A stretch of DNA of 46,447 nucleotides from an uncultured Negativicutes bacterium (lineage in GTDB: Bacteria > Bacillota > Negativicutes > JBAXTZ01): positions 1-46,447 of the forward strand of contig CAVRJL010000011.1 of assembly GCA_963721525.1 (NCBI GenBank). The letters run 5' to 3'. The position numbers were made by a program, and so were the translations under genes. Of the stretch, positions 1 through 46,447 are shown in pieces; position 1 is the first letter of the stretch, and every line of letters begins with the position of its first letter. Under the pieces are notes generated by a model, which saw only the letters and a list, made by a program, of their open reading frames with translations, had not been told where the DNA came from and did no database searches.

Positions 1-23
1 AACATATTGAAACAACCTTTATA

Positions 24-1394
24 TTAATTTTTCTTATTAAAAATCGATAAAATATTTTCCATATGCATCCCTCGTGAACCTTTTATTAATAGTATATCTC
101 CCATACGTAAATATCCCTTTAAGAAACTTTTAATTTCATCATAAGAATTGAAGCCCATAGCTTTCTTTATTCCCTTCGTTTTAGCTCCATTAATCATGTT
201 CTTAGATAAAATACCATATGTGATAAGGGTATCTATACCAAATACAGCTATTTTAACTCCAATTTTAAAATGAATATCAATCGCTTTTTCCCCAAGGTCT
301 AACATATCTCCTAATACTGCTATTTTTCGTCCCTCAAATAGCTTTAAAGTATCAAAAGCAGCTTCTATAGACAAAGGATTTGAATTATAATAATCTTTAA
401 GGACAACTATTCCATTAATATTTTGTATCTCCATTCTCATATTTTCTGCTTTATATTTACTTAAACCCAATTTTATTAATTCAATATCCATTTTCAAAGA
501 TAAACAAACTGCTATAGCAGCTAAGGCGTTATAAACATTGTGTTTGCCAATAATATTAATCCGGATAGGAAAAACATCTTCTTTATTATATAAAACATCA
601 AATTTTATTCCTAATTTTGTCATATATATGTTTCTAGCCCTTATATCAGCATATTTCGACAAACCATAAGTTATTACTTTAGCTTTTGTGTTATAAGTCA
701 TATTTTTTACATTTGCATCATCAATATTTAATACTATTAAATCGTTCTTACATAAAGCTTTCGGCAACTCAGTTTTTGCCTTAATAATATTTTGTATTGT
801 TCTAAGTTTGCTAAGATGCGCTTCTCCTACGTTTGTAATAACCCCTATATTAGGTTTAGAAATATTGCATAATTGCTTTATTTGTCCTAACCCCCGCATT
901 CCCATTTCAATTATTGCACAATCATGCTCTTTTCTTAGATTAAATAAAGTCAAAGGTAAACCAAATTCGTTATTAAAATTACCTTCATTTTTCAATACAT
1001 TAAATTGTTCTTTTAATATTATTGCAACTAATTCTTTAGTGCTGGTCTTCCCGTTTGAACCCGTTATAGCTATAACAGGTATATTATATTGCATTCTTGC
1101 ATAATGCGCTATTTTATGTAAAGCTTGTATAGTATTTTGTACATATATACATGGAATATTAGAACTTATTTTATTGTTCCTATTACAAATTACCGCCGAA
1201 GCTCCTCTTTGTGCAGCTTGTTGTATATACATATGTCCATCAAAGTTTTCTCCATTAATCGCTATAAATAACTGTTTAGGAATAATTGTTCTACTATCAA
1301 TAGAAATTCCAATAAACCTCTTTGAAAAAAATAATTCATTATTTAATATTCCATTAGTAATATTAGCGATTTTTCCTAACGAATCCGTTACCAT
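24..1394 (-). CDS. murF: UDP-N-acetylmuramoyl-tripeptide--D-Ala-D-Ala ligase
   Basis: DSR, ITGSNGKTSTKE P-loop, NNEFGLP, EMGM, DYYNSNP, LGDMLDLG and KGSRG motifs; directly after murE. Confidence 0.96.
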   Translation of the reverse strand: MVTDSLGKIANITNGILNNELFFSKRFIGISIDSRTIIPKQLFIAINGENFDGHMYIQQAAQRGASAVICNRNNKISSNIPCIYVQNTIQALHKIAHYARMQYNIPVIAITGSNGKTSTKELVAIILKEQFNVLKNEGNFNNEFGLPLTLFNLRKEHDCAIIEMGMRGLGQIKQLCNISKPNIGVITNVGEAHLSKLRTIQNIIKAKTELPKALCKNDLIVLNIDDANVKNMTYNTKAKVITYGLSKYADIRARNIYMTKLGIKFDVLYNKEDVFPIRINIIGKHNVYNALAAIAVCLSLKMDIELIKLGLSKYKAENMRMEIQNINGIVVLKDYYNSNPLSIEAAFDTLKLFEGRKIAVLGDMLDLGEKAIDIHFKIGVKIAVFGIDTLITYGILSKNMINGAKTKGIKKAMGFNSYDEIKSFLKGYLRMGDILLIKGSRGMHMENILSIFNKKN

Positions 1395-2871
1395 TTTTCC
1401 CTAAATTCTCCAATGCTTCACAGACAATTTCTTTTTCATTAAAATAAATTCTACCTTCAGGTAAAAGCTGGTAAGTTTCATGTCCTTTACCTGCAAGTAC
1501 AACAAAATCATTTTTTTTAGCCATTTCTAAACTTTTGTAAATTGCTTTTTTTCTATCTTGTAATTTTATATAATTCTGTTTTATCCCTTTATTTTGTTTA
1601 ATGATTCCCAATTCAATTTCGTTAGCAATTTTATTTGCATCTTCGCAACGTGGATTATCATTTGTGATAATAATAAAATCCGAATATTTAGCTGCAACAG
1701 CTCCCATAAGCGGACGTTTTGATTTATCGCGTTCCCCACCGCACCCAAATATTGTAAGAATATTTCCTTGTGCTAGCTCGCGTACTGTTTTTAACAAATT
1801 TTCTAAACTATCAGGGCTATGTGCATAATCAATAATTATAAAAAAATCTTGTCCTATATCTACAAAATCAAAGCGTCCAGTAACACCCAAAAAATATTTT
1901 AAAGCCTTTTTAATTATTTTTATACAAATACCTTCCTCTTGAGCTATAGTAATAGCAGCTAAAATATTATATATATTAAATAACCCTGTTAAACGAGAAT
2001 TTATCTTAATATTTACATTATTGTTAATTTTTAATATAAACCCACATCCTTTATCTTTGATAGAAATTGAATTAGCTGTATAGTTGGCCTTACAATTTAT
2101 ACCATAAAACAGTTTTTTTACAGTGACAAGATCTGACATATATTTGGTGGATAACTCATCCGCATTAAAAACAGCATAACTTTTATCTTTTAAAGATAAA
2201 AATAGTTGAGTTTTTGTTTGCCTATATTCTTCCATTGTTTTATGAAAATCAAGATGATCTTGCGTAAGATTTGAAAATAAAGCAGCTTTAAATTCGCACC
2301 CATAAATTCTTCCCAAGGCAATAGCATGAGATGAAACTTCCATAAATACATACTCTATCTTATTAGATAGCATTTTAGCCAAAATATATTGAAGTTGCGC
2401 ATTATCAGGAGTAGTATTCTTTACTGAAATAATTTCATTATTAATTAAAGATTGTATAGTTCCTATTAATCCGCATTTATACCCTGCTTGTTCAAAAATA
2501 GCTTTTAATAAATATGTTATTGTTGTTTTACCATTTGTTCCTGTTATTCCAATCAACTTTAATCTTTTCGAAGGATAATCATAAATTTCAGGTGCTAAAA
2601 TACGCATTGCTGCACGTGTATTTTTAACTTGTATTACAGCAATATTTTTAATATTTACCTTTTTCTCTACTAGTAAAGCTACCGCCCCTTTTTGCACTAC
2701 GTCTAAAATAAAATCATGTCCATCTGTTTTTTGGCCAGGAATACAAACAAAAATGCTATTTGTCTTTATATCATTAGAATTTAAATCTATATTATCAATA
2801 TTAATTTTTAAATTTCCACTATACTGCGCATCCGGTAAAAGAGTAACTAAATCTCGTAATAATTTAGACAT
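1363..2871 (-). CDS. murE: UDP-N-acetylmuramoyl-L-alanyl-D-glutamate--2,6-diaminopimelate ligase
   Basis: GITGTNGKTT, MEVSSH, NLTQDHLDFH, DYAHSPD, FGCGG and GKGHE motifs; the DNPR motif indicates meso-DAP specificity. Confidence 0.97.
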   Translation of the reverse strand: MSKLLRDLVTLLPDAQYSGNLKINIDNIDLNSNDIKTNSIFVCIPGQKTDGHDFILDVVQKGAVALLVEKKVNIKNIAVIQVKNTRAAMRILAPEIYDYPSKRLKLIGITGTNGKTTITYLLKAIFEQAGYKCGLIGTIQSLINNEIISVKNTTPDNAQLQYILAKMLSNKIEYVFMEVSSHAIALGRIYGCEFKAALFSNLTQDHLDFHKTMEEYRQTKTQLFLSLKDKSYAVFNADELSTKYMSDLVTVKKLFYGINCKANYTANSISIKDKGCGFILKINNNVNIKINSRLTGLFNIYNILAAITIAQEEGICIKIIKKALKYFLGVTGRFDFVDIGQDFFIIIDYAHSPDSLENLLKTVRELAQGNILTIFGCGGERDKSKRPLMGAVAAKYSDFIIITNDNPRCEDANKIANEIELGIIKQNKGIKQNYIKLQDRKKAIYKSLEMAKKNDFVVLAGKGHETYQLLPEGRIYFNEKEIVCEALENLGKNGNGFVRKNR

Positions 2872-2888
2872 CGACCCTCAAAAAACAT

Positions 2889-3170
2889 TTAATTTGTTTT
2901 TTCTATTTTTGCAGCAACAACTTTTGCAGCATCAACTATTTTATTTTCATTTTTAGAAGCAATCTCATGTATTCTTTTTAAAGCTTCTAATTTAGCCACC
3001 TCTATACTTATTTCTTTGTTATTTTTCTCGATTTCTAGCCAATGCTGTTTCAATGTCCATAATTCATATTCGTTTTTCATTAACCATTGGCTTTGTAAGG
3101 AACATAAACTGATTAAAAATGCAAAAAATATAATTAAAAAAATAATTTTAAATTTATTTTTTTTAAACAT
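2889..3170 (-). CDS. ftsL: cell division protein FtsL-like (N-terminal TM helix plus coiled coil)
   Basis: 93 aa with one hydrophobic helix, then a coiled coil ending EVAKLEALKRIHEIA; canonical position after rsmH. Confidence 0.75.
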   Translation of the reverse strand: MFKKNKFKIIFLIIFFAFLISLCSLQSQWLMKNEYELWTLKQHWLEIEKNNKEISIEVAKLEALKRIHEIASKNENKIVDAAKVVAAKIEKTN

Positions 3171-3238
3171 TAGTATTAATTAGTTGATAACTTTGGATTA
3201 TTCTTGTTCTATCCCTCACTATATATGCTCCTTTGTAA

Positions 3239-4174
3239 CTATATTTTTTCTGCAATCCTTAATTTTGCACTTCTCGATCGTGGATTATTGGTAAGTTCTA
3301 CTTTTGTCGGTACAATAAATTTCCCTATTATTTTAAGCAAAGCTTCTTTATTACATATGCAAAAAGGAATTTCTTTAGAGCAAATACATTTTTTTTGTGC
3401 TTTAATAAATACATTTTTAACAATGCGATCTTCTAAAGAATGAAACGTTACAACACATATTCTGCCACCTTGTTTTAAAGTATTTATTGCTTGATTTAAA
3501 GAACTCTCTAGTATTTCAAGCTCGGAATTAACTTCTATCCTTAAAGCCTGAAAAACACGTTTTGCTGGATGAGACCCATTTTGTCTTGCTTTAATTGGAA
3601 TCGCATTTTTTATTATTCCTACCAATTCAAAAGTCGTTTCTATTTTTTTTATTTTACGAGCTTTAACTATAAAATTAGCTATCCTTGCTGCCCATTTTTC
3701 TTCTCCATATTTCTTTATAATTAAATATAACTTTTTTTCAGAATATAGATTGATTATTTCTTTAGCCGTTATTTTCTTATCTTTGTTCATCCTCATATCT
3801 AAAGGTCCGTTTTTTGTATAAGAAAAACCTCTAGTTACCTGTTCAAGTTGATATGAAGATACACCTAAATCAAATACAATTCCATCTATTTTTTTTATAC
3901 CTAAATTTAACAAAACTTTATATAAATTATGGAAATTTTCTTTAACAATTATTAATTTACATAAAATATTTTTTAATTTTTCTTTGGCAATATTTATAGC
4001 TATCTCATCATGATCTATTCCAATTAATATTCCTCTTTCATTTAGCTTATTTGCTATGAATAATGAGTATCCCGCTCCTCCTAAAGTACAATCCATATAT
4101 GTTCCTGAAGGATTAATATTTAATCCTTTAATAGTTTCTTCTAGTAAAACGCTTATATGACGAAATTGTGCCAT
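3239..4174 (-). CDS. rsmH: 16S rRNA m4C1402 methyltransferase RsmH (MraW)
   Basis: HISVLLEE, DCTLGGAG, DLGVSSYQ, RGFSY, PLDMRM, FQALRIEVN, FHSLEDRIVK and NPRSRSAKLR motifs. Confidence 0.97.
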   Translation of the reverse strand: MAQFRHISVLLEETIKGLNINPSGTYMDCTLGGAGYSLFIANKLNERGILIGIDHDEIAINIAKEKLKNILCKLIIVKENFHNLYKVLLNLGIKKIDGIVFDLGVSSYQLEQVTRGFSYTKNGPLDMRMNKDKKITAKEIINLYSEKKLYLIIKKYGEEKWAARIANFIVKARKIKKIETTFELVGIIKNAIPIKARQNGSHPAKRVFQALRIEVNSELEILESSLNQAINTLKQGGRICVVTFHSLEDRIVKNVFIKAQKKCICSKEIPFCICNKEALLKIIGKFIVPTKVELTNNPRSRSAKLRIAEKI

Positions 4175-4175
4175 T

Positions 4176-4618
4176 CTAAAAACCTAACCCTATAAATTTT
4201 CCGACAATTTCAGTAATATTTATTTTACATTGTCACAAGTTTGCTATTTTTCTTTATTTTAAACTTTTATGTGATCGATGTTATCTATATCAACACTTTT
4301 TAAAAAAATATATCTCCATTAGTAATAATCCCTATTTATTTCCTTTAAATTCCTGAAATATAACTTTTATAAAATATATTATACTATTTTGTGTGAAATC
4401 TCGAAAATGCCTCTGTTTTTAATGTTTTTTATATTTTTGTACTATGTTTTCTAATGTTTCACTTTTGTTTCTATATTTTCTGTTAAAGTATAAAAATTTC
4501 TGCTTTATTCTGTTGAGGATGCAATAAATAGGAAATAAATTTATAAGTTAAAATTAAGTCATCATTGCCTAAATATTTAGATTCTTCCGTTAAAGTGTAA
4601 TAAGCGTATACTTACAAA
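4176..4618 (-). pseudogene. mraZ: heavily eroded mraZ remnant
   Basis: Manual minus-strand translation gives collinear MraZ-like fragments: NGRI*IFRQ, EAFSRF, NK*GLLL (cf. DKQGRILI), HIKV*NKEK* (cf. RIEIWSKEKW) and ITEIVGKFIGLGF* ending 1 nt before the rsmH ATG; canonical mraZ position. The 5' boundary is approximate. Confidence 0.75.
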
Positions 4619-4642
4619 TAAAAAACACTGTATTTTTATTCT

Positions 4643-6259
4643 TTAGTACAATTTTTTCTGTTTTCCAAGCACAGCTTCTATAAAATTTTTAAATAGAGGA
4701 TGAGGTTTATTCGGTCGGGACTTGAATTCAGGATGAAATTGTGTTCCCAAAAACCAAGGATGATTTTTAAGCTCCACTATTTCGATAAGTCTTTCATTCG
4801 GAGATACTCCAGAAAAAGATAACCCGGCAGTTGAAAACATATCTTTATAGATATTATTAAATTCATATCTATGACGGTGGCGTTCATAAATTATTTTTTC
4901 TTTATAAGATTTGTATGCATTAGTTCCTTCAACTAATTTACAAGGATATATTCCTAACCTCATAGTCCCGCCTTTATGTTCAATCGTTTGTTGCTCAGCC
5001 ATTAAATCTATTACTTGGTTATTACTTTTTTTGTCAAATTCACTTGAATTTGCATCAACTAAATTACATACATTGCGAGCAAATTCTATAACCATACATT
5101 GCATACCTAAACATAAACCTAGAATCGGAATTTTATTAATACGTGCATACTCAATTGCTTTTATTTTTCCTTCTATTCCTCTATCTCCAAACCCACCTGG
5201 AATAACAATTCCGCCTATATTACCAATAATTTTATCTATATTTGCATCTCTATCTTCTAAAAGTTCGGCATTTATCCATTTTATTTCCACTTTTACATTA
5301 TTATAAAGCCCACCATGGCATAAAGCTTCATTGACACTTATATAAGCATCGTGTAAGTCAACATACTTACCAATAAGTGCTACTTTAACTATTGAAGATA
5401 AATTTAATATATTGTTAACTAATTCCTCCCATTCTATCATGTTAGGCTTTTGCACTGTTATATTCAATTTTTTTAAAACAATACGATCTAAACCTTCTTT
5501 ATGTAACACTATCGGCAATTGATATATACTTGGCATTGTTTTATTTGTAATTACAGCATCAGTATCAATATCACAAAATAAAGCTAATTTTTCTTTTACT
5601 CCATTTGAAATATTTTCCTCGCTACGACAAACAATAATATCCGCCGTGATTCCAATCGATCTTAACTCTTTTATGCTATGTTGAGTAGGTTTTGTTTTTA
5701 ATTCTCCAGCGGTGCCCAAATAAGGTACTAAAGTAACATGAATATATAATACATTCATCTTTTCCTACTTCCTTTTTTATTTGTCTTATTGCTTCTAAGA
5801 AAGGGAGACCTTCAATATCGCCTACTGTCCCACCAATTTCAGTTATAACAATATCAGCATATCTGCTTTTCCAACACGATAAATACGTTCTTTAATTTCA
5901 TTTGTAATATGAGGAATAACTTGTACTGTACTACCTAAATAATCTCCTCTACGCTCTTTAGAAATTACAGACCAATAAATTTCTCCTGCAGTTACATTTG
6001 AGTTTTGTCTTAAATTTTCATCTATAAATCTTTCATAATGGCCTAAATCAAGATCTGTTTCGGCTCCATCATCAGTAACAAAAACTTCTCCATGTTGATA
6101 TGGGCTCATCGTACCGGGATCTACATTAATATACGGATCAAATTTTTGAACTGTAACTTTTAATCCACGATTCTTTAATAATCTCCCCAACGATGCTGCA
6201 GTTATTCCTTTACCTAAAGAAGAACTAACTCCTCCAGTAATAAAAATATATTTTGTCAT
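4643..6259 (-). pseudogene. pyrG: CTP synthase interrupted by two compensating frameshifts (pseudogene, recoded gene or sequence error)
   Basis: ORFs 5843..6259 and 4643..5758 share one frame. The conserved [34 protein letters not shown] lies intact in a shifted frame at 5757..5858. The repaired gene is 538 aa, with intact GLCLGMQ and HPE glutaminase motifs. Confidence 0.92.
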
Positions 6260-6285: not shown

Positions 6286-6804
6286 TTATACAACTTCTTC
6301 TTCACTTTCAGGGTCAATATAAATTGAGGGTTTAATGTTCTCTTCTATTTTTTCTTGTATAGTTTCAAAAACCATTTCACGACGCTTTCTTTCAAAAAGA
6401 TGCTGACTTGCTTCAAATTGCCTTAAAACTTTCATATCGTTTTGTGCAATCCATTCAGCTAACCCCCAAATACCTTTTCCGTAATAATAAAATCTGCTAT
6501 CCATATTTATTTGAGTATATAACTCAGCCATAATATGCGCCCAGTTATAATTATCTATTTCAATCCGCCCTTCGACAGCCTTCCTTAACAGTTCACGAAA
6601 ATGCAACGATTTATTCTCATAAATAAGGATTTGATAAAATGTTTCCAAATTACTTAAATTTGGAGTCCTTAAAAAATCTTTTTTGTCATCTATAGTTTCT
6701 TTAATTTTTGGAATAGTTAATCCTATTTTTTTTTCTTTTTTTATTATTTTTCTTTCTTCCTTTTTTTTATTATTTATATCTTTTTTTTTAACTTCTTTAT
6801 TCAT
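6286..6804 (-). CDS. rpoE: DNA-directed RNA polymerase subunit delta
   Basis: HARE-HTH core LHFRELL...[13 protein letters not shown]...GIWGLAEW; conserved argS-rpoE-pyrG synteny; AAGGAG RBS. Confidence 0.88.
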
Positions 6805-6814: not shown

Positions 6815-8512
6815 TCACATACTCTCCAGTGCTCTTATACCAAGTATATTTAAACTATGCTTCAAACAATTTTTAACTACTTTTATCAAAATTATTCTAC
6901 TATTACATTCTTGTTTGGTATTTGCTCCAATTATTCTACATTGATTATAAAATGCATGAAATAATTCTGCAAGTTCTAAAACATATTTAGCTATATAATG
7001 CGGTGCACGAAAATCAGCAGCTTTACTTATTTTATTAGGATAATCGTAAATTTTTTTTATAATATCAATTTCTATAGGCAAACTTAAACTAGATAAATCT
7101 ACTTTTTCGATATCAGGAATTGATATCTTCTCTATTTCAAGCTGTCTAAAAATACTACAAATTCTTGCATAAGCGTATTGTATGTAATAAACAGGATTTT
7201 CATTCGATTGTTTAATAGCTAAATCGATATCAAAATCTAATTGACTATCTATTGACCTCATAATAAAAAAATATCGTGCCGCGTCTTTTCCAACTTCATC
7301 AATTAATTCTTTTAAAGTAATAATATTTCCAATTCTTTTTGATAGTTTTACTAGTTCTTTTCCTTTAAAAAGCCTTACCATCTGTAAAAGTAATATTTCT
7401 AATCGTGAAGTATCAAAGCCCAAAGCTGCCATAGCCGCCTTCATACGTGTAACGTACCCATGATGGTCTGCACCTAAAATATTTATTAACCTATCAAAAC
7501 CTCGCTCAAATTTATTGCAATGATACGAAATATCAGGTGTAATATATGTAGGATTTCCATCTGAACGAATTAACACTCTATCCTTATCATCTCCAAAAGT
7601 TGAAGACCTTATCCATTTTGCTCCATCCTGTTCATATAAATTACCGCTTTTTTTCAATTTTTCTAAAATATCTTTAATTTTATTTTTCTTGTATAATTCT
7701 TTTTCGCTAAACCAATTATCAAAAGTTACCCCAAATTCTTTTAAGTCCTTTTCCAAAAGCGCAAGTTTTTCTTTGTAAGCAATTTTTTTAAAAATTTGTA
7801 TTCTTTGGCTTTCTTCAAACCCTAAATATTTATCTCCGTCTTTTTCTATAATTTTATGCGCTGTAGCATAAATATCTTCTCCATAATAACCATCTTTAGG
7901 AAAAACAAAAGGTTGTCTTAATAATTCCAAGTACCTTGCATTGACTGAAAGTGCTAAGTTATCTATCTGTTGGCCTGCGTCATTAATATAGTATTCAGTA
8001 CTTACCTTATTACCAGCAGCTTTTAAAATATTTACTAAAACGCTTCCCACAGCTGCACCTCTTCCATGCCCTATATGTAATGGTCCTGTTGGATTAGCGC
8101 TTACAAATTCTATTTGGATATATTCTTTACTATTTGGTATAGCCTCTCCATAAGTTTCCCCAGTTTTATAAATTTCTTTCAATCCAGTATAGATCCACTG
8201 TTTATTTAAATAAAAATTTATAAAACCTGGCCCTGCGACTTCCACTTTTTCTATAAAATTAGTATTAGGTGAAATATACGCAATAATTTTTCTTGCTGTT
8301 TCAAACGGGTTAATTTTTAAATCTTTAGCTATTTTCATCGCAAAATTAGTGGAAAAATCTCCAAATTCTTTTTTAGGAGGTTGTAAAAGCTCTATTTCTC
8401 TATTTCCAATATATTGGGCTGCCGATTTTTCATTTTTTGAAAAAATCCTCAGTGCGGCAATTTTTAATATATCACGTATACTTTGTTCTATTTTTTGATT
8501 CTTATTTCCCAT
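6815..8512 (-). CDS. argS: arginine--tRNA ligase
   Basis: VAGPGFINF, EFVSANPTGPLHIGHGR, GADHHGY and NPVYYIQYA motifs. Confidence 0.98.
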   Translation of the reverse strand: MGNKNQKIEQSIRDILKIAALRIFSKNEKSAAQYIGNREIELLQPPKKEFGDFSTNFAMKIAKDLKINPFETARKIIAYISPNTNFIEKVEVAGPGFINFYLNKQWIYTGLKEIYKTGETYGEAIPNSKEYIQIEFVSANPTGPLHIGHGRGAAVGSVLVNILKAAGNKVSTEYYINDAGQQIDNLALSVNARYLELLRQPFVFPKDGYYGEDIYATAHKIIEKDGDKYLGFEESQRIQIFKKIAYKEKLALLEKDLKEFGVTFDNWFSEKELYKKNKIKDILEKLKKSGNLYEQDGAKWIRSSTFGDDKDRVLIRSDGNPTYITPDISYHCNKFERGFDRLINILGADHHGYVTRMKAAMAALGFDTSRLEILLLQMVRLFKGKELVKLSKRIGNIITLKELIDEVGKDAARYFFIMRSIDSQLDFDIDLAIKQSNENPVYYIQYAYARICSIFRQLEIEKISIPDIEKVDLSSLSLPIEIDIIKKIYDYPNKISKAADFRAPHYIAKYVLELAELFHAFYNQCRIIGANTKQECNSRIILIKVVKNCLKHSLNILGIRALESM

Positions 8513-10232: not shown

Positions 10233-10237
10233 AAAAG

Positions 10238-35664: not shown

Positions 35665-37056
35665 TTAACTAAGGTCAGTTCCAAGCTCTAATAGCTGTAT
35701 AGTTTTATCAAATTCTTCTTCAGTAATAGTATTTAACTTTAAAGCAGCTTCTTTTAAAGATAAATCATAGTCATATGCGTACTTTACTAGTTTTGCTGCT
35801 TGATCATAGCCTATTGTAGGTGTAAACGCCATAGCAATCATTAACGAATTTTTAACATAGTAATTTATTTTTTTTATATTTGGTTGCATGCCTTTTACTG
35901 TATATTTCAAAAAACACCATATAGTATCGGACAATATTTTTATTGATTCAAGGATATTAAAAATAATTAAAGGTTTATAGACATTCATTTCCAATAATCC
36001 GCCTGATGTTCCTATTGTAACAGCAAAATCATTTGCTATAACTTGCGCACAAACCATAGTAAGCACTTCACATTGTGTAGGATTAACCTTGCCAGGCATT
36101 ATAGACGATCCAGGCTCATTTTCAGGTAAACATAATTCAGCAAACCCAGCACGTGGCCCACAAGCAAGTAAACGAATATCATTTCCTATCTTATATAAAG
36201 AGTTTGCCAAAGTCTTTATTGTAGCAGATAATTGTCCTAAACTATCATGTGCTCCTTGAACGGCAAATTTATTTTTTGCACTATTAAAAGGAAGTTTTGT
36301 TAAATAAGCTATCTCTTGTGCAATTAACTCGGAAAATTTATCTGGAGAATTCATTCCAGTTCCTACTACCGTTCCTCCCATTGTTATTTTATAAACATCT
36401 TGTAATGTTTCGTTAATCCTTTTATAATTGTCATCGAGCATTGCAACATAACCAGAAAATTCTTGCCCTAAAGTCAAAGGAATTGCATCTTGCATATGTG
36501 TTCTACCTATTTTGACAATATTCATCCATTCTTTAGATTTTTCTTTCAATCCTGCGCTTAATGCAGATAAAGCTGTTAATAGTTTGTGTTTAACAGCAAA
36601 AATACATGCTATATGCATAGCAGTAGGAAAAGTATCATTTGTAGATTGCGACATATTTATATCATCGTTAGGATGAATAATATGTTTACTACCTAAAGGT
36701 TTATTTAAAAGTTGACAAATTCTATTAGCTATAACTTCATTTACATTCATATTAAATTGAGTACCGCTACCACTCATCCATATTTTTAAAGGAAACATAT
36801 CTAAATGTTGGTTTGCAAGTATTTCATCACATACATGGACGATTAAATTCTTTTTTTCTTTTTTAAGCCTAGAAGTTTTAAAATTAATAATTGCAGCAGC
36901 CTTTTTTACTATAGCATAAGCTTCAATCATTTCTGTAGGCATTAAATTATTGCCAATGGGAAAAAACTTTAATGCTCTTTGTGTTTGTGCTCCCCATAAT
37001 TTATTGTTGGGAATTTTTATGTATCCTAAACTATCTTCTTCTATCCTGTAATCCAT
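35665..37056 (-). CDS. fumC: class II fumarate hydratase
   Basis: [38 protein letters not shown] and [15 protein letters not shown] motifs. Confidence 0.95.
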
Positions 37057-37105
37057 TATATAAACCTCAAATTAACTATAAAAAATTTATTAAATATTAA
37101 AAATA

Positions 37106-37960
37106 TTAATTTAATAAATTTTTTATAGGTTTACAATTAAAACCTTGTCCTTGAAATTTTTTTTCAAGTATTTTTATCAAACTTTTATCAATAATATTAT
37201 CGGGTTCAAATATTCCAAATACTGCAGTGCCACTTCCCGACATTAAAGCAGTAAGTGCACCGTTCTTTATCATTGTTCGTTTTATTTCATAAATCTGCGG
37301 GTACTTTTCACCTATTAAATCTTCAAATATGTTTCCCATTACAAAAGATATTGACTTAATATCTTTTGTAATGGGAAACATATTTGGATGTTTTAAATTG
37401 CTTTTCTTTTTAATAAATTGCTTATATGCCCATTGAGTAGAAATGCCAATATTCGGTTTAAAAACAAGTATATTGCAATTAGGAATATTATCTAATTGTT
37501 CAAGTAACTCCCCACGTCCAAAAGCTCTCGCGGTTCCCCCATTTATGCAGAAGGGAACATCAGAGCCAATATACGAACCTATTTCTTGCAATTCTTTTAT
37601 TGATAAATCCAATTCCCATAAACTATTTAAGCCTCGTAAAACAGCAGCTGCATCGGTACTACCCCCCCCTAACCCAGCCTCGATAGGAATATTTTTTACC
37701 AGAATTATTTTCGCACCGAAATTTATATGTAATTTTTTTTTTAAAATATAAGCTGCTCTGTATGCTAAATTTTTTTTATCTGCGTCTAATATTCTGTTAT
37801 TTTGTAGTGATAAAGATAAATTATCTGCTTTATTTAATAGTATTTCATCGCATAAATCGATTGATTGTAATATAGTTTCTATTTCATGGTAATTATCAGA
37901 CCTTTTATTAAGAATATTAAGCGCTAAATTAATTTTAGCGAAAGCTTTTTCTTTAATCAT
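37106..37960 (-). CDS. ispE: 4-diphosphocytidyl-2-C-methyl-D-erythritol kinase
   Basis: AKINLAL, YHEIET, KNIPIEAGLGGGSTDAAA, GSDVPF and MSGSG motifs. Confidence 0.96.
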   Translation of the reverse strand: MIKEKAFAKINLALNILNKRSDNYHEIETILQSIDLCDEILLNKADNLSLSLQNNRILDADKKNLAYRAAYILKKKLHINFGAKIILVKNIPIEAGLGGGSTDAAAVLRGLNSLWELDLSIKELQEIGSYIGSDVPFCINGGTARAFGRGELLEQLDNIPNCNILVFKPNIGISTQWAYKQFIKKKSNLKHPNMFPITKDIKSISFVMGNIFEDLIGEKYPQIYEIKRTMIKNGALTALMSGSGTAVFGIFEPDNIIDKSLIKILEKKFQGQGFNCKPIKNLLN

Positions 37961-38066
37961 ACTATCTCATTAAAATTCTTTTTTAAATTTATGTTATACT
38001 TTTTTTATTTTGCTTAAGAATATAAAAAATATCTATACTATCTTTTATGTGGAGAATATCTTCTTA

Positions 38067-38921
38067 ATGCTTTTTTTAAAACAATATATTAAACAATTAT
38101 TAATGATTGCTATTGGGTGCTGTTTTTTTGGCGTTGGGATTAATGTATTTCTAATTCCATTTAAACTATTAAGCGGCGGTTTAAGCGGAATAGCTATTAT
38201 ACTTAATATTTTACTTGGAGCTCCTTTAGGTATTACAAATATATTATTAAATATTCCTCTTTTTATTTCAGCTTATTTTTTTTTAAAAAAAGAAGATATT
38301 ATAATTGGATTATTTGGAATGTTATTTTTTTCTAGCGCAATACAATATTTTAGTTTTTTAGCTCATCATTGTGTTTTAAATAACTACGATATCATGCTCG
38401 CCTCAATATACGGTGGGGTTGTTTGCGGTATAGGGGGCGGAATCATTTTCCGTTCAGGTGGACAAGCTGGTGGTATAGATATAATAGGTTTAATAATACG
38501 TAAATATTACGGATTAAGTATAGGAACTACTTCATTTTCTATTAATGTTGTTATTATGTTTTTATCAAGCTTTTCTTTCGGAATGAAATCAGCTATGTAT
38601 ACGCTTATCGCTATGTATATAAGTTCTAATGTAACCGATTTAATAATAAATGGTTTTGCCCGCAAAAAAATACTTATTATCATTTCAGATTATGCTGAAG
38701 ATATATCCAAAATAATAATAAAAGAAATAGAAAGAGGCGTTACTTTTATTCGAGGAGAAGGTGGATTTTCCGGAAAAGAAAAAAAGATAATGCTGATTGC
38801 GATAAGTAAATTACAAATTTCCAAGGCACATCAATTAATTCATGACATTGATCCACACGCATTTATTATTATACAAGATGCAACAGAAGTTCAAGGGCAA
38901 GGATTTACTTTTGGAAAATAA
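38067..38921 (+). CDS. YitT family membrane protein (DUF161 plus DUF2179)
   Basis: LSGGLSGIA, LNIPLF, GGIDII, RGVTFI.GEGG and DPHAFIII motifs; start moved to the ATG behind GGAG (the track starts at 38010). Confidence 0.88.
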   Translation: MLFLKQYIKQLLMIAIGCCFFGVGINVFLIPFKLLSGGLSGIAIILNILLGAPLGITNILLNIPLFISAYFFLKKEDIIIGLFGMLFFSSAIQYFSFLAHHCVLNNYDIMLASIYGGVVCGIGGGIIFRSGGQAGGIDIIGLIIRKYYGLSIGTTSFSINVVIMFLSSFSFGMKSAMYTLIAMYISSNVTDLIINGFARKKILIIISDYAEDISKIIIKEIERGVTFIRGEGGFSGKEKKIMLIAISKLQISKAHQLIHDIDPHAFIIIQDATEVQGQGFTFGK

Positions 38922-38953: not shown

Positions 38954-40240
38954 TCAATTTATAATTTTAGCAAATACATATTTACCACGATATTTTGCAA
39001 TATCGTTAAGTTCTTCTTCTATCCTAATTAATTGGTTATATTTTGCTACTCTATCAGTTCGTGCAGGTGCTCCTGTTTTAATTTGACCTGAATTAACTGC
39101 TACAGCTATATCTGATATAATTGAATCTTCTGTTTCACCCGAACGATGAGATATAACACAATTATATCCTGCTCTTTTGGCTACTTCAATTGCTGTAAAA
39201 GTTTCACTAAGCGTACCTATTTGATTTAATTTTATCAATATAGAATTAGCAACTCTTTCTTTAATTCCTCGTTTTAAGCGTTTTGCATTTGTTGCAAATA
39301 AATCATCGCCTACTAACTGTATTTTTTTACCTAATCTCTCTGTTAAAATTTTCCATCCCCCCCAATCGTCTTCACTCATTCCGTCTTCTATTGATATTAT
39401 CGGGTATTTTTTAACAAGCTCACTGTAATAATTAACAAGCTCCTCTGAAGTTAATACTCTCCCTTCACCTGCTAAATAATATTTTCCTTTTTTATATAAT
39501 TCTGTTGCTGCAACATCTATTGCAAGAACTATTTCTTCATCTAATTTATATCCAGCTATTTCAATAGCTTCAATTATAACTTGCAAAGCTTCCTCATTTG
39601 ATTTCAAATTTGGAGAAAATCCTCCTTCGTCTCCAATAGCTATACTTAATTTTCTTTTTTTTAAGACTATTTTCAACGTATGATATATTTCAACACACAT
39701 TTGCAATGCTCCGCTTAAATTTGTCACTCCTATAGGGACTATCATAAATTCCTGTATATCTACATTATTATCCGCATGTTTACCTCCATTTAATATATTC
39801 ATCATAGGTACAGGTAATTCTTTCGCCGTAAATCCACCTAAATAAGTATATAAAGGTAAACTACAATATTTTGCTGCTGCTTTTGCTATCGCCATCGATA
39901 CTCCAAGTATTGCATTTGCTCCAAGCTTACTTTTATTTTTACTTCCATCTAAATCAATCATTGTTTTATCAATTTTTTCCTGTAAACGGCAATCCATGCC
40001 CATCAATTCGGGTGCTATTATTTCTTTTACATTATTTACTGCTTGTAATACTCCTTTACCAAAATAAAAATTTGTATTATTATCTCTAAGTTCAACTACT
40101 TCATACGCACCCGTGGAAGTACCACTTGGAACTGACGCTCTACCTATAATCCCACTTTCTAGGCAAGCATCTACTTCTATTGTAGGATTACCACGAGAAT
40201 CTAAAATTTGTCTTGCTTTTATTTCAGTTATAATACTCAC
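38954..40240 (-). CDS. eno: enolase
   Basis: [38 protein letters not shown] and RTDRVAKYN motifs; true start is GTG at 40240 behind AAGGAG. Confidence 0.98.
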
Positions 40241-40273
40241 TAATTTTCTCCTTATAAAGTTTATATTATTATT

Positions 40274-40337
40274 TTTAAAATAATTTCCATTTAAAATAAT
40301 TTCCATTTAAAATAATTTCCATTTAAAATAATTTCCA
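40274..40337. repeat. tandem repeat, four exact copies of 16 bp (TTTAAAATAATTTCCA)
   Basis: Directly visible in the gpmI-eno spacer. Confidence 0.97.
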
Positions 40338-40348
40338 ATTGTTTTAAT

Positions 40349-41893
40349 TTAAAGTATTAAACTATTTCCAGTCATTTCAGTAGGCTTAATTATATTGGCA
40401 GTAGCAAGCATTGTTGGTGCTATATCTGCTAATATCCCATTTGGGCGTAAGTTTTTTCCTATTAACTTATCGTCTACTATTATAAAAGGTACTTTATTTG
40501 ACGTATGAGCTGTATACAAACAATCATTTTTTTCATCCCACATTTGCTCGGCATTACCATGGTCTGCACTTAAAAAGGCTATCCCATTAACCAAAGTTAA
40601 TTCTCTAATTATTTTATAAATACACACATCTAATATTTTGACTGCTTTAACAGTAGCCTCAAAGTTACCAGTATGTCCGATAATATCACAATTTGCGAAG
40701 TTAACTATTATGAAGTCATATTGTTTAGCTCTTATTGCAGCTATTAGTTTTTCAGTGATTTCGAATGCACTCAATGCAGGGACCAAATCATACGTATAAC
40801 TTTTAGGAGATGGCACAAATATTCTAGTTTCACCTTTTTTTATTGTCTCTTTTCTACCATCAAAAAAGAATGTCACATGAGCATATTTCTCTGTTTCTGC
40901 TATTCTCAATTGGCTATAACCTAAATTTGATATATATTCTCCTAATGTATTTTTTAAAACTTGTGATAAAAAAGCTACAGTTACGTCTAAATTTTTATCA
41001 TATTTTGTAAAGCAAACAAATAATAATTTTATCCTACCTTTTTCGCGTTTAAAGCCATTAAAATCCTCTTGTACAAATGCCCATGTCAATTCACGAGCTC
41101 TATCCGGTCGGAAATTAAAAAATATTAAACCATCATTTTCTTTGACTATTCCTTTTTCTTTATCTCCAATAATTGTTGGTGATATAAATTCATCAAAAAT
41201 ATTGTTACCATAGGATTCAATTATAGCTTCTTTAGTATTATTCGCTAATTTCCCTTCTCTATAAACTAAAACATTATAAGCTTTTTCTATTCTATCCCAC
41301 CTCATATCTCTATCCATAGCATAATGACGACCGCAAATAGTAACTATTTTACCTATACCTATTTCTTTTATTTTTTTTTCTAGCTGTTCAATATATTTTA
41401 AAGCTGATTTCGGTAATGCATCTCTTCCGTCTAGAAAAGCATGAATATATATTTCTTTGAGCCCCAACCTTTTCGCCATTTCTAATAGAGCAAATAAATG
41501 ATTTATATGACTATGTACTCCACCATCGGATAACAGTCCGCATATATGTAGAGCATTACCTCTTTTTATTATTTTTTTCATTATCGAAATTAAGGCAATA
41601 TTTTTAAAAAATTCACCAGTTGAAATTTCTTTATTAATACGACCTAGTTCTTGACATACCACTCTCCCTGTGCCTATGTTTAAGTGCCCAACTTCACTAT
41701 TACCAACTTGTCCTTTAGGTAGCCCTACAGCACTTCCTGAACAGGTAAGCAAAGTATTAGGATATTTATCTTTTAGTTCTAAAATATTTTTTGGCTGAGC
41801 TTTATTTATAGCATTTATCTTCTTATCACTTACAGTAGTATAACCAAACCCATCCATAATTATTAACATTTGAGGTCGTTGCAATCTTATCAT
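40349..41893 (-). CDS. gpmI: 2,3-bisphosphoglycerate-independent phosphoglycerate mutase
   Basis: IMDGFG, GNSEVGH, SDGGVHSH, FNFRPDRARE, AETEKYAHVTFF and ADHGNAE motifs. Confidence 0.97.
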   Translation of the reverse strand: MIRLQRPQMLIIMDGFGYTTVSDKKINAINKAQPKNILELKDKYPNTLLTCSGSAVGLPKGQVGNSEVGHLNIGTGRVVCQELGRINKEISTGEFFKNIALISIMKKIIKRGNALHICGLLSDGGVHSHINHLFALLEMAKRLGLKEIYIHAFLDGRDALPKSALKYIEQLEKKIKEIGIGKIVTICGRHYAMDRDMRWDRIEKAYNVLVYREGKLANNTKEAIIESYGNNIFDEFISPTIIGDKEKGIVKENDGLIFFNFRPDRARELTWAFVQEDFNGFKREKGRIKLLFVCFTKYDKNLDVTVAFLSQVLKNTLGEYISNLGYSQLRIAETEKYAHVTFFFDGRKETIKKGETRIFVPSPKSYTYDLVPALSAFEITEKLIAAIRAKQYDFIIVNFANCDIIGHTGNFEATVKAVKILDVCIYKIIRELTLVNGIAFLSADHGNAEQMWDEKNDCLYTAHTSNKVPFIIVDDKLIGKNLRPNGILADIAPTMLATANIIKPTEMTGNSLIL

Positions 41894-42651
41894 TAGTTCT
41901 CCGACAATTTAATAATTTTGCTAAATTCATTAGCATTTAAACTTGCTTTACCTACCAATACTCCGTTAATATCTCTCATTTTCATTATTTCAAAATAATT
42001 ATTAGAGTTGACACTTCCTCCATATAAAATACGAATATTTTCAGCTACTTTTTCACTAAACATTTTTGCTATTTCTTTTCTAATGCTTACACATACATTA
42101 TTAGTATCCTGACTTGTTGCTGTTTTTCCTGTACCAATAGCCCATATTGGCTCATATGCTATAACGATTTTTATCGCATCTTGTGTAGAAATCCCAATCA
42201 GCCCTTTATTTAGTTGTTCGGAGCATTTTTTTTCTGTACCTATACTTTCTTTTTCTTGTAAAGTTTCACCAATGCATATTATAGAAACAATATTTTCTTT
42301 TAACGACGCTTTAACTTTTTTATTAATCATTTCATTTGTTTCGTTAAAATGATGACGTCTTTCACTATGTCCAATTAGAGCGTATTTGCAGCCCATTTTT
42401 TTTAGCATATAGGCAGAAATTTCTCCCGTAAAAGCCCCTTCTTTTTCCCAAAATAAATTTTGTGCACCTATTTGAATATTAGTTTCTTTAACCTCTTCCA
42501 ATGCTGTTTGTATAGAAATCAAAGGAGGAAAGATTATAATATCGGTATTATTTTTATCCTTAACTAACTCAATTAAATTTTTTATTACATTCCTTGTTTG
42601 TGCTGTAGTTTTATACATTTTCCAATTACCTGCAACAATTTTTTTACTCAT
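41893..42651 (-). CDS. tpiA: triosephosphate isomerase
   Basis: AGNWKM, GHSERR, AYEPIWAIGTG and LYGGSV motifs; start set at the ATG at 42651 just after the pgk stop. Confidence 0.97.
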   Translation of the reverse strand: MSKKIVAGNWKMYKTTAQTRNVIKNLIELVKDKNNTDIIIFPPLISIQTALEEVKETNIQIGAQNLFWEKEGAFTGEISAYMLKKMGCKYALIGHSERRHHFNETNEMINKKVKASLKENIVSIICIGETLQEKESIGTEKKCSEQLNKGLIGISTQDAIKIVIAYEPIWAIGTGKTATSQDTNNVCVSIRKEIAKMFSEKVAENIRILYGGSVNSNNYFEIMKMRDINGVLVGKASLNANEFSKIIKLSEN

Positions 42652-42652
42652 T

Positions 42653-43831
42653 TTATTTTTTTTCAATAACAGCAATTCCAGGTAGAAGTTTACCTTCTAA
42701 AAATTCTAGACTTGCTCCCCCTCCTGTAGAAATATGATACATTTTATCTGTTAATCCCACCTTTTTTATAGCAGATATTGAATCTCCACCCCCAATAATT
42801 GTTATTCCTTTATTATTGGCTACAGCTTTAGCCAATTCTATTGTTCCTGTTGCAAAATTACTAAATTCAAATACCCCCATAGATCCATTCCACACTATTA
42901 ATTTTGCTTCTGTCAAAGCATCAATATATTGTTTTACCGTCTCTATACCAATATCAAGTATCATCCAATTATTTGGTATTTGCTCAATTTTAACTGTTTC
43001 GTAATTGCTTTCATTAGAAAATTTATCACTAACGACAACATCAATAGGTAATAATAACTTTACATTTTTTTCTTGTGCATCGTTAATTATTTCTTTTGCT
43101 AACTCTATTGTATCCTTTTCTATCAGCGATTTGCCTATATTGTAATCTTTTGCCGCTAAAAAAACATTTGCCATACCACCACCTATAATTAAAATATCTA
43201 TTTTATCTATTAAATTTTTTATCGCACCTATTTTATCGGATATTTTAGCTCCTCCTATAATAGCAGCATAAGGATGAATACGCTTATTCATTATTTTGGA
43301 TAAAATTTTAATTTCTTTTCCCATTAATAAACCGGTAACTATAGGAATAAATTTCCCTATTCCTTCAACTGAAGCATGCGTTCGATGAGATACACTAAAT
43401 GCATCATTCACAGCAACCTCCGCAATTTTTGCCAATTTTTCACTAAATTTATCATCATTTTTTTCTTCATGTTCATAAAATCTTAAATTTTCTAATAATA
43501 TAATATCACCATAATTCATGATATTTATTGCCTGATGTATTTTCTCCCCTACACAATCGTCAACAAACTTTACTTTTTTATTTAATAAGTTACTTAACCT
43601 TTCAGCTATAGGTTTTAAAGTATAGTTAAAGTTACGTATTCCTTTAGGTCGGCCTAAATGAGAAACAATAATAATTTTACTTTTTTGTTTTATAAGGAAT
43701 TCAAGTGTGGGTAAATTTGCTTTTATTCTCGTGTCATCTGCAATGATCCCATTTATCATCGGCACATTATAATCTGCTCGTACCAATACACGCTTATTTT
43801 TCATATCAATATCATATATTGATTTTTTCAA
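42653..43831 (-). CDS. pgk: phosphoglycerate kinase
   Basis: RADYNVP, SHLGRPKG, LLENLRF, GGAKISDKI, GGGDS and HISTGGGASLEFLEG motifs. Confidence 0.98.
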   Translation of the reverse strand: MKKSIYDIDMKNKRVLVRADYNVPMINGIIADDTRIKANLPTLEFLIKQKSKIIIVSHLGRPKGIRNFNYTLKPIAERLSNLLNKKVKFVDDCVGEKIHQAINIMNYGDIILLENLRFYEHEEKNDDKFSEKLAKIAEVAVNDAFSVSHRTHASVEGIGKFIPIVTGLLMGKEIKILSKIMNKRIHPYAAIIGGAKISDKIGAIKNLIDKIDILIIGGGMANVFLAAKDYNIGKSLIEKDTIELAKEIINDAQEKNVKLLLPIDVVVSDKFSNESNYETVKIEQIPNNWMILDIGIETVKQYIDALTEAKLIVWNGSMGVFEFSNFATGTIELAKAVANNKGITIIGGGDSISAIKKVGLTDKMYHISTGGGASLEFLEGKLLPGIAVIEKK

Positions 43832-43846
43832 ATTCTCTCCTATTAT

Positions 43847-43894
43847 AAAAAAAGAGCATAAAGATGAAATACGTTGATTTCAAGTTTTGCTCCC
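43847..43894 (-). terminator. stem-loop plus U-tract between gap and pgk
   Basis: Minus strand GAGCA..TGAAAT-caacgt-ATTTCA..TGCTC followed by TTTTTTT. Confidence 0.6.
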
Positions 43895-43912
43895 TGAAAA
43901 TTTTGTATTTTA

Positions 43913-44998
<1,086 letters not shown>

Positions 44999-45006
44999 CT
45001 AAAAAT

Positions 45007-45035
45007 ATTATACTGTATGGTCTCTATACAGTCAA
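45007..45035 (-). promoter_or_regulatory. sigma-A promoter of the gap operon with an embedded palindrome (candidate operator)
   Basis: TTGACT-N17-TATAAT; the inverted repeat ACTGTAT-N7-ATACAGT (45012..45032) fills the spacer and touches both boxes. Confidence 0.8.
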
Positions 45036-45057
45036 AACTGTTTTTTCTATTTGTATA

Positions 45058-46197
45058 TTATATGATTTTATCTTCTAAATATAAAACTTTATGTAAAGGT
45101 AAAGTAGCTGCTCCAATAATTGTTGCTTTATCTTCAATATCGACAAATTTTATTTTTTTTGCATTTTCCCCTAAATAATTTGTAATTTCCCTAAATAACT
45201 TATCCGCATATTTTGAAATTATTCCTTCGACCAAAATTATTTCTGGCGCATATGCTAGACATAAATTATAAATACCGACGCAAAAATATTTTATATATCT
45301 TTCACATATTTTCACAGCAACATCATCTTTTTTAAGATATAAATCATAAACTTCTTTCGCATTTTCAACCACTTTTTTTGCAACTTTATTATACTCTTCT
45401 AACAATGCTTTATTTGATATCGCTTTATTCCAACAGCCTTTTTCTCCACATTCACATTCTTTACCACCAACCTCCACAACCATATGTCCTAAAGATTTAT
45501 TAGTAGAAGAACGGCTATGAAACACATTCCCGTGCAATACAATTCCTACATCTATTTCGTCACTTATTGAAATATAAAGAGCATTTTTCCCTTCATTATC
45601 TGTAGACTGTATTTCAGCTAACGCGGCCACATTTGTACAGTTTTCAAACATTATGGGAATTGATACCCCCTCTATATTAACTTTATTATTTATTATTATC
45701 GTTTGTTCTAAATCAATAAATTTATCAACCAAAGCCCAAGAAATTCCTACTCCGATACCAATTATATTTGTAGTTATAATATTTGCTTCTTTTATCGTTT
45801 TACTAATTTTTCTTACTAATTCTTGATCGCAATAATTAGTAAGAATACAATCGATTGGATATTCTTTATTGTAAACTACTTTTAAATCTAAATCAATAAC
45901 AGCTATTTCCAACATTCCTTGACAAATACTTATACCAATAGAATGCAGGGAATTAGGTATAAAATCATAAACACTCGGTTTCCTACCAGCTGTTTTTAAT
46001 TCTCCTTGTCCAATAATTTTAACAATACCTTTTTGTACAAATTCATCTGTAACTTTTGAAACGGTAGTCATACTAACTCCTGAATGACGTACTAAATCAT
46101 TTTTTGTAAATCTCCTTATCTGCATTGCAGTATGCAAAATGCGCTTTTCATTTGCTTCTTTTATTGTACTATGCACTACAGTTTCTAAATTTGACAT
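45058..46197 (-). CDS. ROK family transcriptional regulator (XylR/NagC-like) with degenerate sugar-binding motifs
   Basis: N-terminal HTH (KNDLVRHSGVSMTTVSKVTDEF), GRKP linker, GHM...CECGEKGCW Zn motif; ATG at 46197 behind GGAGG. Confidence 0.9.
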   Translation of the reverse strand: MSNLETVVHSTIKEANEKRILHTAMQIRRFTKNDLVRHSGVSMTTVSKVTDEFVQKGIVKIIGQGELKTAGRKPSVYDFIPNSLHSIGISICQGMLEIAVIDLDLKVVYNKEYPIDCILTNYCDQELVRKISKTIKEANIITTNIIGIGVGISWALVDKFIDLEQTIIINNKVNIEGVSIPIMFENCTNVAALAEIQSTDNEGKNALYISISDEIDVGIVLHGNVFHSRSSTNKSLGHMVVEVGGKECECGEKGCWNKAISNKALLEEYNKVAKKVVENAKEVYDLYLKKDDVAVKICERYIKYFCVGIYNLCLAYAPEIILVEGIISKYADKLFREITNYLGENAKKIKFVDIEDKATIIGAATLPLHKVLYLEDKII

Positions 46198-46241
46198 AAT
46201 TACCTCCAAATATTTTTATAACTATATAAAACAAAAAATTG

Positions 46242-46301
46242 ATAAATTATAATATATTTATAATTTATATTAATTATACTTCATTTTTTTTATTATGTTA
46301 A
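46242..46301 (-). promoter_or_regulatory. candidate promoter and operator of the ROK gene
   Basis: TTAACA(46301-46296)-N17-TATAAT(46278-46273), followed by a perfect 11-bp inverted repeat ATAAATTATAA-N5-TTATAATTTAT (46242..46268); very AT-rich, so chance matches are possible. Confidence 0.5.
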
Positions 46302-46447
46302 ATAAATATCAAATTATTATGTTAAATAAATATCAAATTATTATGTTAAATAAATATCAAATTATTATGTTAAATAAATATCAAATTATTATGTTAAATA
46401 AATATCAAATTATTATGTTAAATAAATATCAAATTATTATGTTAAAT
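46290..46447. repeat. tandem repeat of at least 6.5 exact copies of 24 bp (TTATTATGTTAAATAAATATCAAA), running off the window end
   Basis: Directly visible; no spacers between units. Confidence 0.98.

Follow-up and report, generated by a model that had tools for sequence, protein, structure and literature searches.

The stretch of DNA analyzed here, referred to as the window, is the complete contig C11 (46,447 nt) of the bin GCA_963721525.1 (hereafter G000), from an uncultured Negativicutes bacterium. Positions 1 to 46447 belong to the ~550-kb core of a reduced genome of this class, which was compared with two Negativicutes relatives of the same family, G001 and G002. The comparison covered about 2.2 of the 2.4 Mb of G001, and contigs of G002 at one locus only. 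An earlier reading made from the letters alone (the sequence-only reading) had described the window as AT-biased, with proteins rich in Ile, Lys and Asn, and free of insertion sequences (IS) and phage genes, and all of these features were recovered. The GC content is 28.8% (24.6 to 34.3% per 2-kb bin), with 89.7% coding sequence according to our own open reading frame (ORF) caller, and GC at third codon positions is 17.7% versus 44.7% in G001. Ile, Lys and Asn together account for 27.9% of residues versus 18.2% in G001 over 29 reciprocal-best pairs, and for 27.5% versus 18.4% over 343 pairs of the core. The genes have roles in housekeeping, transport and glycolysis, and four encode tRNAs. Among the 39 proteins, 35 belong to an NCBIfam housekeeping family and three of the remaining four to a Pfam family, and the last one has a match in the equivalent position of G001; 38 of the 39 match DNA of G001 (E<=1e-8). 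No mobile-element gene was detected among them with NCBIfam, Pfam and the G001 comparison.

At the left end, rsmH, the gene at the ftsL position, murE and murF (24-4174, minus strand) start a cell-wall and division cluster, and the contig stops where mraY would come next. After a spacer (4175-4642) come pyrG (4643-6259), encoding CTP synthase and split in two, the gene of the RNA polymerase delta subunit RpoE (6286-6804), short-tailed like its 151-aa counterpart in G001, argS (6815-8512), used as tree marker, a MATE efflux transporter gene (8715-10070), and the genes for tRNA-Asn, tRNA-Glu and tRNA-Val (10157-10394), all on the minus strand. The two protein motifs quoted in the sequence-only reading were located in ArgS and RpoE. 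A 1.2-kb spacer with 21% GC (10395-11589) precedes tmk, holB, ricT, rsmI, metG and tatD (11590-17289, plus strand). Next are kdpA, kdpB, kdpC and a full-length kdpD sensor kinase gene (17319-24403, minus strand); KdpD (17319-19997) comprises 892 aa with a kinase domain, versus a 661-aa ORF in G001. They are followed by tRNA-Leu(GAG) (24597-24680, plus strand), by infC, with an ATT start at 26772, rpmI, rplT and an rRNA methylase gene (24760-26772, minus strand), and by genes for a VTT-domain protein, recG, engB and lon (27355-33500, minus strand), with rpmB inside this block on the plus strand (30272-30460). Positions 33780-38921 hold genes for a nitroreductase (plus), a nucleoside permease (34390-35649, minus), a lyase of the fumarase/aspartase family (minus), ispE (minus) and a YitT protein (plus), and an imperfect 83-nt inverted repeat lies in the interior of ispE (37315-37396). 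A ROK-family regulator gene, gap, pgk, tpi, gpmI and eno (38954-46197, minus strand) leave lower glycolysis intact. At the gpmI-eno junction, four perfect 16-nt repeats (40274-40337) extend the eno ORF upstream. The contig ends in 6.6 perfect copies of a 24-nt tandem unit (46290-46447). This unit recurs on contig C12 near 5560-5710, just downstream of the 5S rRNA gene, which suggests a second, collapsed rRNA operon.

The sequence-only reading had also proposed that several spacers still translate into gene ghosts. Twelve pairs of a spacer and its expected gene were picked by synteny with G001, and each was scored against 200 shuffles. The proposal drew faint support from two of them, both in the expected place and on the expected strand. 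The spacer at 10395-11589 scored 48 (z 4.1) and beat all 200 shuffles (maximum 45) with a plus-strand trace of the 477-aa G001 gene preceding tmk, which from its sequence is presumably a Lys/Orn/Arg decarboxylase. The spacer at 4175-4642 scored 40 (z 3.9), also above all 200 shuffles (maximum 39), with a borderline minus-strand trace of the 143-aa G001 gene preceding rsmH, which we take to be mraZ. No score exceeded the shuffles in nine other spacer tests. The sole strong match (26680-26772, z 14) was rejected as a ghost, being the intact N-terminus of IF3, which starts with the ATT codon.

Clean deletion of operon members, another claim of that reading, was borne out in part. The 255-aa G001 gene between ricT and rsmI has been deleted without trace. 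The 285-aa gene after rplT, before the rRNA methylase gene, is deleted as well, and the spacer there measures 101 nt versus 1022 in G001. MetG has 512 aa versus 645 in G001 and has lost its C-terminal tRNA-binding domain; the other 119 homologs among the best 120 of 3651 listed have 558-670 aa. RicT (207 aa versus 287 in G001) has lost an 80-residue tail. Other supposed deletions are not particular to the window. In the 2.4-Mb relative, too, murE directly follows the ftsL-position gene with no penicillin-binding protein gene in between, and no kdpE lies beside kdpD. The mraY-murD-murG-murC-ftsZ block follows murF in G001, a position that would be just past the left end of C11.

Three genomes, all of one family, make up the order: G000, G001 (2.4 Mb, 97% complete) and G002 (3.4 Mb, 98% complete). 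In an ArgS tree of 26 rows (LG+C20+F+G4; 25 of the 89 fetched loci were chosen by hand), they formed a clade (100/99) within a 20-row Negativicutes clade (95/92). G000 was not drawn to the AT-rich Bacilli row, and a 40-row quick tree was concordant. The approximately unbiased (AU) test rejected a grouping of G000 with Bacilli rows (p-AU 0.03). RpoB is 76% identical to that of both G001 and G002, versus 64-71% for 27 other class members, and the named best matches of MetG and L20 are Negativicutes, Bacillota or Selenomonadales. The proposed membership in Negativicutes is thus upheld. The narrower affinity to Selenomonadales or Sporomusales found no support, since the three genomes have an order of their own, a clade with three Selenomonadaceae rows was rejected (p-AU 1.2e-5), and the Sporomusaceae rows stand apart from G000 in the tree. 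The ArgS branch of G000 measures 1.06, versus ~0.6 for its relatives from the same node. The 420 reciprocal best hits with G001 have a mean identity of 55.5%. The closest homologs found reached 68% for MetG (among the same best 120), 71% for enolase (metagenome contigs, best 80 of 580) and 54% for RpoE. An L20 encoded on a 1-kb contig is 80% identical to that of G000 and shares derived residues with it, hinting at a closer, unsampled sister lineage.

The bin comprises 769,348 nt in 16 contigs (81.22% complete, 2.11% contaminated). Its reading as a single genome was rejected because it holds one phage contig, contigs that are likely contaminants, and chimeric contig ends. Contigs C3, C5, C6, C11, C12, C15 and C16 form the core (549,751 nt, 29.3% GC, 85.2% genic, 486 ORFs). 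C8 (83 kb) is a large phage contig with genes for gp32, a DnaB-like helicase, HNH proteins, peptide deformylase and Hsp20, intein-bearing genes, and mostly uncharacterized ORFs. Matches to G001 were rare or of low identity on C1, C2, C4, C7, C9, C10, C13 and C14, which are probably foreign. C7 carries a second, frameshifted F-type ATPase operon together with rplU, rpmA and parB-like genes of low identity, and probably comes from a different AT-rich organism that was binned along. At the ends of C6, C15 and C16, the GC content rises abruptly to 45-62% and the genes are unrelated, and the C6 tail is chimeric because hydA continues from C6 into the start of C15. Dividing 550 kb by 0.81 or 0.74 gives a full genome estimate of 0.68-0.74 Mb, with an upper bound of ~0.95 Mb if all contigs belonged to it. 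The smallest of the 396 other listed class genomes has 1.3 Mb (4 further genomes lie outside the listing).

Assembly errors have to be separated from decay. A total of 481 loci match G001 proteins, with 376 intact, 66 flagged as broken and 39 partial. The flagged genes include rplB, rplX, rplE, rpsH, fusA, dnaE, secA and atpA, names which we partly assigned ourselves. Reading such frameshifts in essential genes as erosion was rejected for most of them, as duplicate regions reveal assembly indel noise. Over 1653 nt, the two versions of the C5/C6 overlap disagree by 6 indels and 2 substitutions, and a gene that is whole in one of them is broken in the other. Between the two copies of tuf there are 12 gap bases and 38 substitutions. 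Breaks in secA, prfB, dnaE, clpB, atpA and tlyA sit in A-runs of 7-10 and could be errors, slippage-corrected or real. The pyrG break in the window consists of two opposing single-base indels near 5859 and 5755, ~100 nt apart and outside long homopolymers; the N-terminal piece is 90% identical to G001, and the split is probably a consensus error. MutS and MutL are encoded by one 1460-aa ORF (C15:84396-88778, minus strand) and by separate adjacent genes in G001, reflecting either a real fusion or a stop codon lost by consensus error.

Compared with G001 (44.3% GC, 92.5% coding), 183 adjacent gene pairs are conserved. Within 70 syntenic intervals, the bin lacks 98 genes of G001, of which 20 have left a trace; these counts depend on our own ORF caller and thresholds, and some of the traces may be short surviving genes. 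Another 12 interval genes were found elsewhere in the bin, some through our own merging of loci. As a bin that is 81% complete would contain about four of every five genes that had merely moved, true loss is expected for most of the 98. The names of the lost G001 genes are tentative readings of their sequences, and the lost or decayed ones presumably include mraZ, the decarboxylase gene, fabF, fabG, tyrA, pheA, proAB, xerC, dacA and ftsE. Shikimate-pathway genes (C15:43.2-48.4 kb) and chorismate mutase (C6:6397-6774) have been kept, with two neighbors, presumably pheA and tyrA, deleted in place.

The dnaA gene has no match in G000 and a match in 377 of 401 class genomes. A dnaA remnant lies between rpmH and dnaN (C3:11506-12249), where the GC skew still flips and three DnaA-box-like motifs are left. 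In one genus of the class (g72, family f12), seven listed genomes of 93-100% completeness have no dnaA match at E<=1e-30 and one other member has one, which may reflect loss, divergence or a search miss. Fatty-acid synthesis genes are decayed or lost in place, and the acyl carrier protein gene has been kept between remnants that we take to be fabF and fabG. In the bin, fabD, purF, rnfC, uvrB and the POR_N domain were not found, all of them being present in G001 and G002. The core contains no response regulator, and the sole match in the bin lies in a chimeric tail, versus 18 and 41 matches in the relatives; the KdpD of the window has no partner here, unless a gap in the bin conceals it. Spacers longer than 300 nt number 94 of 476 in G000 and 93 of 1976 in G001 (RNA genes and frameshift fragments still included), and the median spacer is 59 versus 32 nt. 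Such longer spacers are a pattern of drift, not of streamlining. No transposase or integrase family was found in the family scans of the core, and the IS200/605-like genes lie in a chimeric tail of 51-55% GC. Strong reduction with AT drift is therefore well founded, with an estimated ~0.7 Mb versus 2.4 and 3.4 Mb in the larger kin and the shift in third-position GC described above. The picture of a genome caught mid-erosion was overstated, as the core lacks IS, is 85% genic, has about four fifths of its losses without trace, and owes many of its seemingly fresh pseudogenes to consensus errors.

The genes that have been kept outline an energy metabolism. Transporter genes cover several amino-acid permeases, a peptide transporter, nucleoside (34390-35649 in the window) and nucleobase permeases, sugar and thiamine uptake, and an energy-coupling factor module; an Aas- and LplT-like lipid-salvage pair is present below curated cut-offs. 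For lysine fermentation, KamA, KamB, Kdd and Kal exceed the cut-offs, and KamD/E, Kce and the CoA-transferase were detected by Pfam. Bcd-EtfAB, PduL, acetate kinase and butyrate kinase are encoded, as are a HydC/HydB/HydA-type NADH-linked [FeFe]-hydrogenase and the HydEFG maturases. In pathways of this kind, lysine yields acetate, butyrate, ammonia and ATP, and Bcd-Etf yields reduced ferredoxin; the hydrogenase vents electrons as H2, which requires a low H2 pressure. Genes for nucleobase breakdown encode dihydropyrimidinase, guanine deaminase and an enzyme of the xanthine dehydrogenase (XDH) family, and diaminopropionate ammonia-lyase is also present. An operon at C15:183.9-193.3 kb combines an XDH-family molybdoenzyme, a C-N hydrolase, a cyclase, AllG/FdrA/AllH and a permease, and for several of these genes the compared part of G001 offers no match. 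Pyrophosphate (PPi)-dependent phosphofructokinase (PFK), pyruvate phosphate dikinase (PPDK), pyk, a Na+-pyrophosphatase and an F1Fo ATPase accompany the intact gap-to-eno genes. With the [FeFe]-hydrogenase, the radical-SAM aminomutase and an anaerobic ribonucleotide reductase, the retained core is predicted to be strictly anaerobic. Envelope genes encode Omp85/BamA, heptose-pathway-like proteins and a GT9 heptosyltransferase, alongside PolC, DnaE and the delta subunit.

We consider at a probability of about 0.55 that these sequences come from a strongly reduced, AT-drifted Negativicutes bacterium (~0.7 Mb) that is likely host-restricted and most likely lives inside an anaerobic protist as a scavenging fermenter. 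Host restriction is likely judging from gene loss. Host lysine, nucleosides and lipids would be imported, the lipids ready-made, ATP would be self-made by substrate-level phosphorylation, and acetate, butyrate, ammonia and H2 would be released. A hydrogen sink would be needed, for example a methanogen in the host or nearby. An anaerobic protist is suggested because an anoxic host with a hydrogen consumer corresponds to the ecology of such protists. The AT bias, long branch and longer spacers, as well as the disappearance of dnaA and response regulators, would follow from drift in a small population inside the host. The KdpABC, cell-wall and outer-membrane genes that were kept may perhaps suit a vacuole or the cell surface better than the free cytosol. 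A commensal or mildly parasitic life appears likelier than nutritional mutualism because little is left to provide. More tentatively, and at slightly less than even odds, this DnaA-less bacterium in an anaerobic protist would have the smallest genome in Negativicutes (~0.7 Mb) and be the first intracellular symbiont among diderm Firmicutes, gaining its ATP by fermenting lysine and nucleobases of the host, with acetate, butyrate, ammonia and H2 as products. The strain also occurs beyond this assembly, as the contigs listed for one metatranscriptome run, which matches 0.11 of the sequence words, include 8 that measure 191-360 nt and are identical to the window. Two other runs of the same study match next to none of these words, and among the contigs listed, identical ones occur in that one run only. 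In the available portion of PMC11127453, Clostridia and Negativicutes are described as prevalent in a cluster enriched for anaerobic ciliate classes.

Several observations weigh against life inside a protist. The trees are of a single gene, ArgS, and the composition of G000 fails the homogeneity test. The sole run with the strain is labelled only "metagenome", with no host or habitat, and RNA libraries can contain DNA. The bin has gaps: ftsZ, groEL and lpxA were not found in it, lpxA being present in both relatives, and family scans saw 14 of the 19 expected aminoacyl-tRNA synthetases. The absences of purF, rnfC, uvrB, the large pyruvate oxidoreductase and kdpE have no synteny anchor and may lie in gaps. 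No PF03219 match for an ATP/ADP translocase was found in this incomplete bin, although none of 14 control genomes matched either, and Pfam scans of the core turned up neither secretion systems nor eukaryote-like repeat families. The core has kept a gene for a MazF/PemK-type toxin, with a small ORF upstream of it (C15:106496-107052). The cell wall, KdpABC and repair genes (recA, mutSL, addAB, ruvABC) have also been kept, and extracellular cells need all of these.

The same retained genes, with BamA and the heptose genes, and the failure to find translocase or effector machinery favor a host-restricted but extracellular symbiont, either in an animal gut or as an ectosymbiont on the surface of a protist, whose genome shrank by drift and which feeds on lysine, nucleobases and lipids supplied by its host or community. 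Most cultured Negativicutes are gut bacteria. Small, AT-rich Bacillota clades from animal guts, whose intracellular life is unproven, are described in the available part of a 2025 preprint (10.1101/2025.07.29.667580). We nevertheless regard this alternative as unlikely. Decay of dnaA and loss of all core response regulators are typical of intracellular symbionts (for dnaA, see the available text of PMC10579323), and no listed homolog is closer than the 68% of MetG or the 71% of enolase, despite heavy gut sampling in those collections.

A streamlined syntroph that lives free or attached to prokaryotes in anoxic sediment or sludge, turning lysine and nucleobases into H2 for methanogens, would account for the self-sufficient energy metabolism and the high-affinity K+ pump, and the patches of foreign, GC-rich sequence at the ends of contigs suggest that the community was complex. 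It is quite unlikely, as a streamlined genome is marked by short spacers and scarce remnants, whereas the median spacer here is nearly twice that of G001 and remnants persist; ready-made fatty acids are also needed, and dnaA is lost. We give still less credence to an intracellular symbiont of an invertebrate animal, although size, GC content and dnaA loss match insect endosymbionts. The loss of dnaA also agrees with the available text of PMC10579323. The strictly anaerobic core speaks against such a host, as do the few amino-acid pathways left of the kind that insect symbionts usually supply. Finally, that the reduction is an artefact of an incomplete, error-rich bin from an ordinary low-GC bacterium is highly improbable, in spite of the ~81% completeness, phage contig, likely contaminants, chimeric ends and indel errors, because the 98 losses in 70 intervals fall inside intact contigs between conserved neighbors, the whole bin scaled by completeness (~0.95 Mb) is still below every other listed class genome, and composition shifts cannot arise from binning.

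No Negativicutes endosymbiont was found in the main texts of the open-licence PMC and bioRxiv literature, while supplementary genome tables of termite or rumen studies could list one. The word Negativicutes does not occur in the available portions of two papers on protist symbionts (PMC10579272 and PMC10579323) and of a rumen-ciliate preprint. The 2025 preprint, in its available part, names Acutalibacteraceae as the only Bacillota family known to its authors with demonstrated intracellular life. If residence in a protist is correct, host restriction would have arisen independently in a class without such a case in the searched literature, and burning amino acids would offer an alternative to stealing ATP or supplying nutrients, as protist symbionts described to date do. 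The two larger, syntenic sister genomes allow every loss to be traced gene by gene. Questions are thereby opened as to whether reduction spares the outer membrane, by what means the origin fires in the absence of DnaA although the GC skew still flips there, and why lysine and nucleobase fermentation was kept over biosynthesis. The host can be searched directly by fluorescence in situ hybridization (FISH), as the bin contains a full 16S gene (C12:156-1746).

Known systems share parts of this picture. Ca. Vesiculincola pelomyxae, a clostridial symbiont in vesicles of the anaerobic amoeba Pelomyxa schiedti, is, according to the available text of PMC10579272, a Bacillota of low GC content (33.1%) with many transporters that makes its own fermentative ATP with acetate and H2, has no de novo amino-acid or nucleotide synthesis, and is read as a parasite, all like G000. 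Unlike G000, the same text gives it 1.4 Mb, a monoderm envelope, endospores, a sugar-based metabolism and a host shown by FISH. G000 has about half that size, outer-membrane genes, no spo0A match, and fermentation of lysine and nucleobases. Ca. Improbicoccus and Paraimprobicoccus (Acutalibacteraceae, in termite flagellates) are likewise small, low-GC Bacillota with little biosynthesis, one of them without dnaA, as far as the available part of PMC10579323 describes them. In that description they differ as energy parasites of 1.0-1.3 Mb with an ATP/ADP translocase, broken glycolysis, eukaryote-like proteins and 94-248 pseudogenes, whereas G000 has lower glycolysis intact and several ATP-yielding routes (lysine pathway, acetate and butyrate kinases, pyk, PPDK and PPi-PFK). 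Endomicrobiellum (Elusimicrobiota, termite flagellates) is a fermentative, anaerobic, diderm lineage that, much like G000, has shrunk relative to free-living kin (from ~2.1 Mb and 38% GC to ~1.1 Mb and 32% GC), but belongs to another phylum, and the protist symbionts of that system mostly keep the biosynthesis that G000 has mostly lost (PMC11257099, available portion).

TC1 (PMC5034148), a further case of intracellular Firmicutes beside Acutalibacteraceae, is a symbiont of a free-living anaerobic protist beside methanogens, with low GC content (32.8%) and two rRNA operons. With 1.59 Mb and 182 IS-related ORFs (35 complete, 147 partial), it represents a true mid-erosion state, in contrast to the core of G000, which has no IS and under half the size. 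The erosion stage of G000 is late, past that of TC1. G001 and G002 share gene order, lysine 2,3-aminomutase and the lack of flagellin and spo0A matches with G000, but differ in their size, in having dnaA, fabD, purF, Rnf, uvrB and 18-41 response-regulator matches, and, for G001, in a GC content of 44%. The process is of a known kind; new are the lineage, its background in diderm Firmicutes and an energy strategy of fermenting amino acids.

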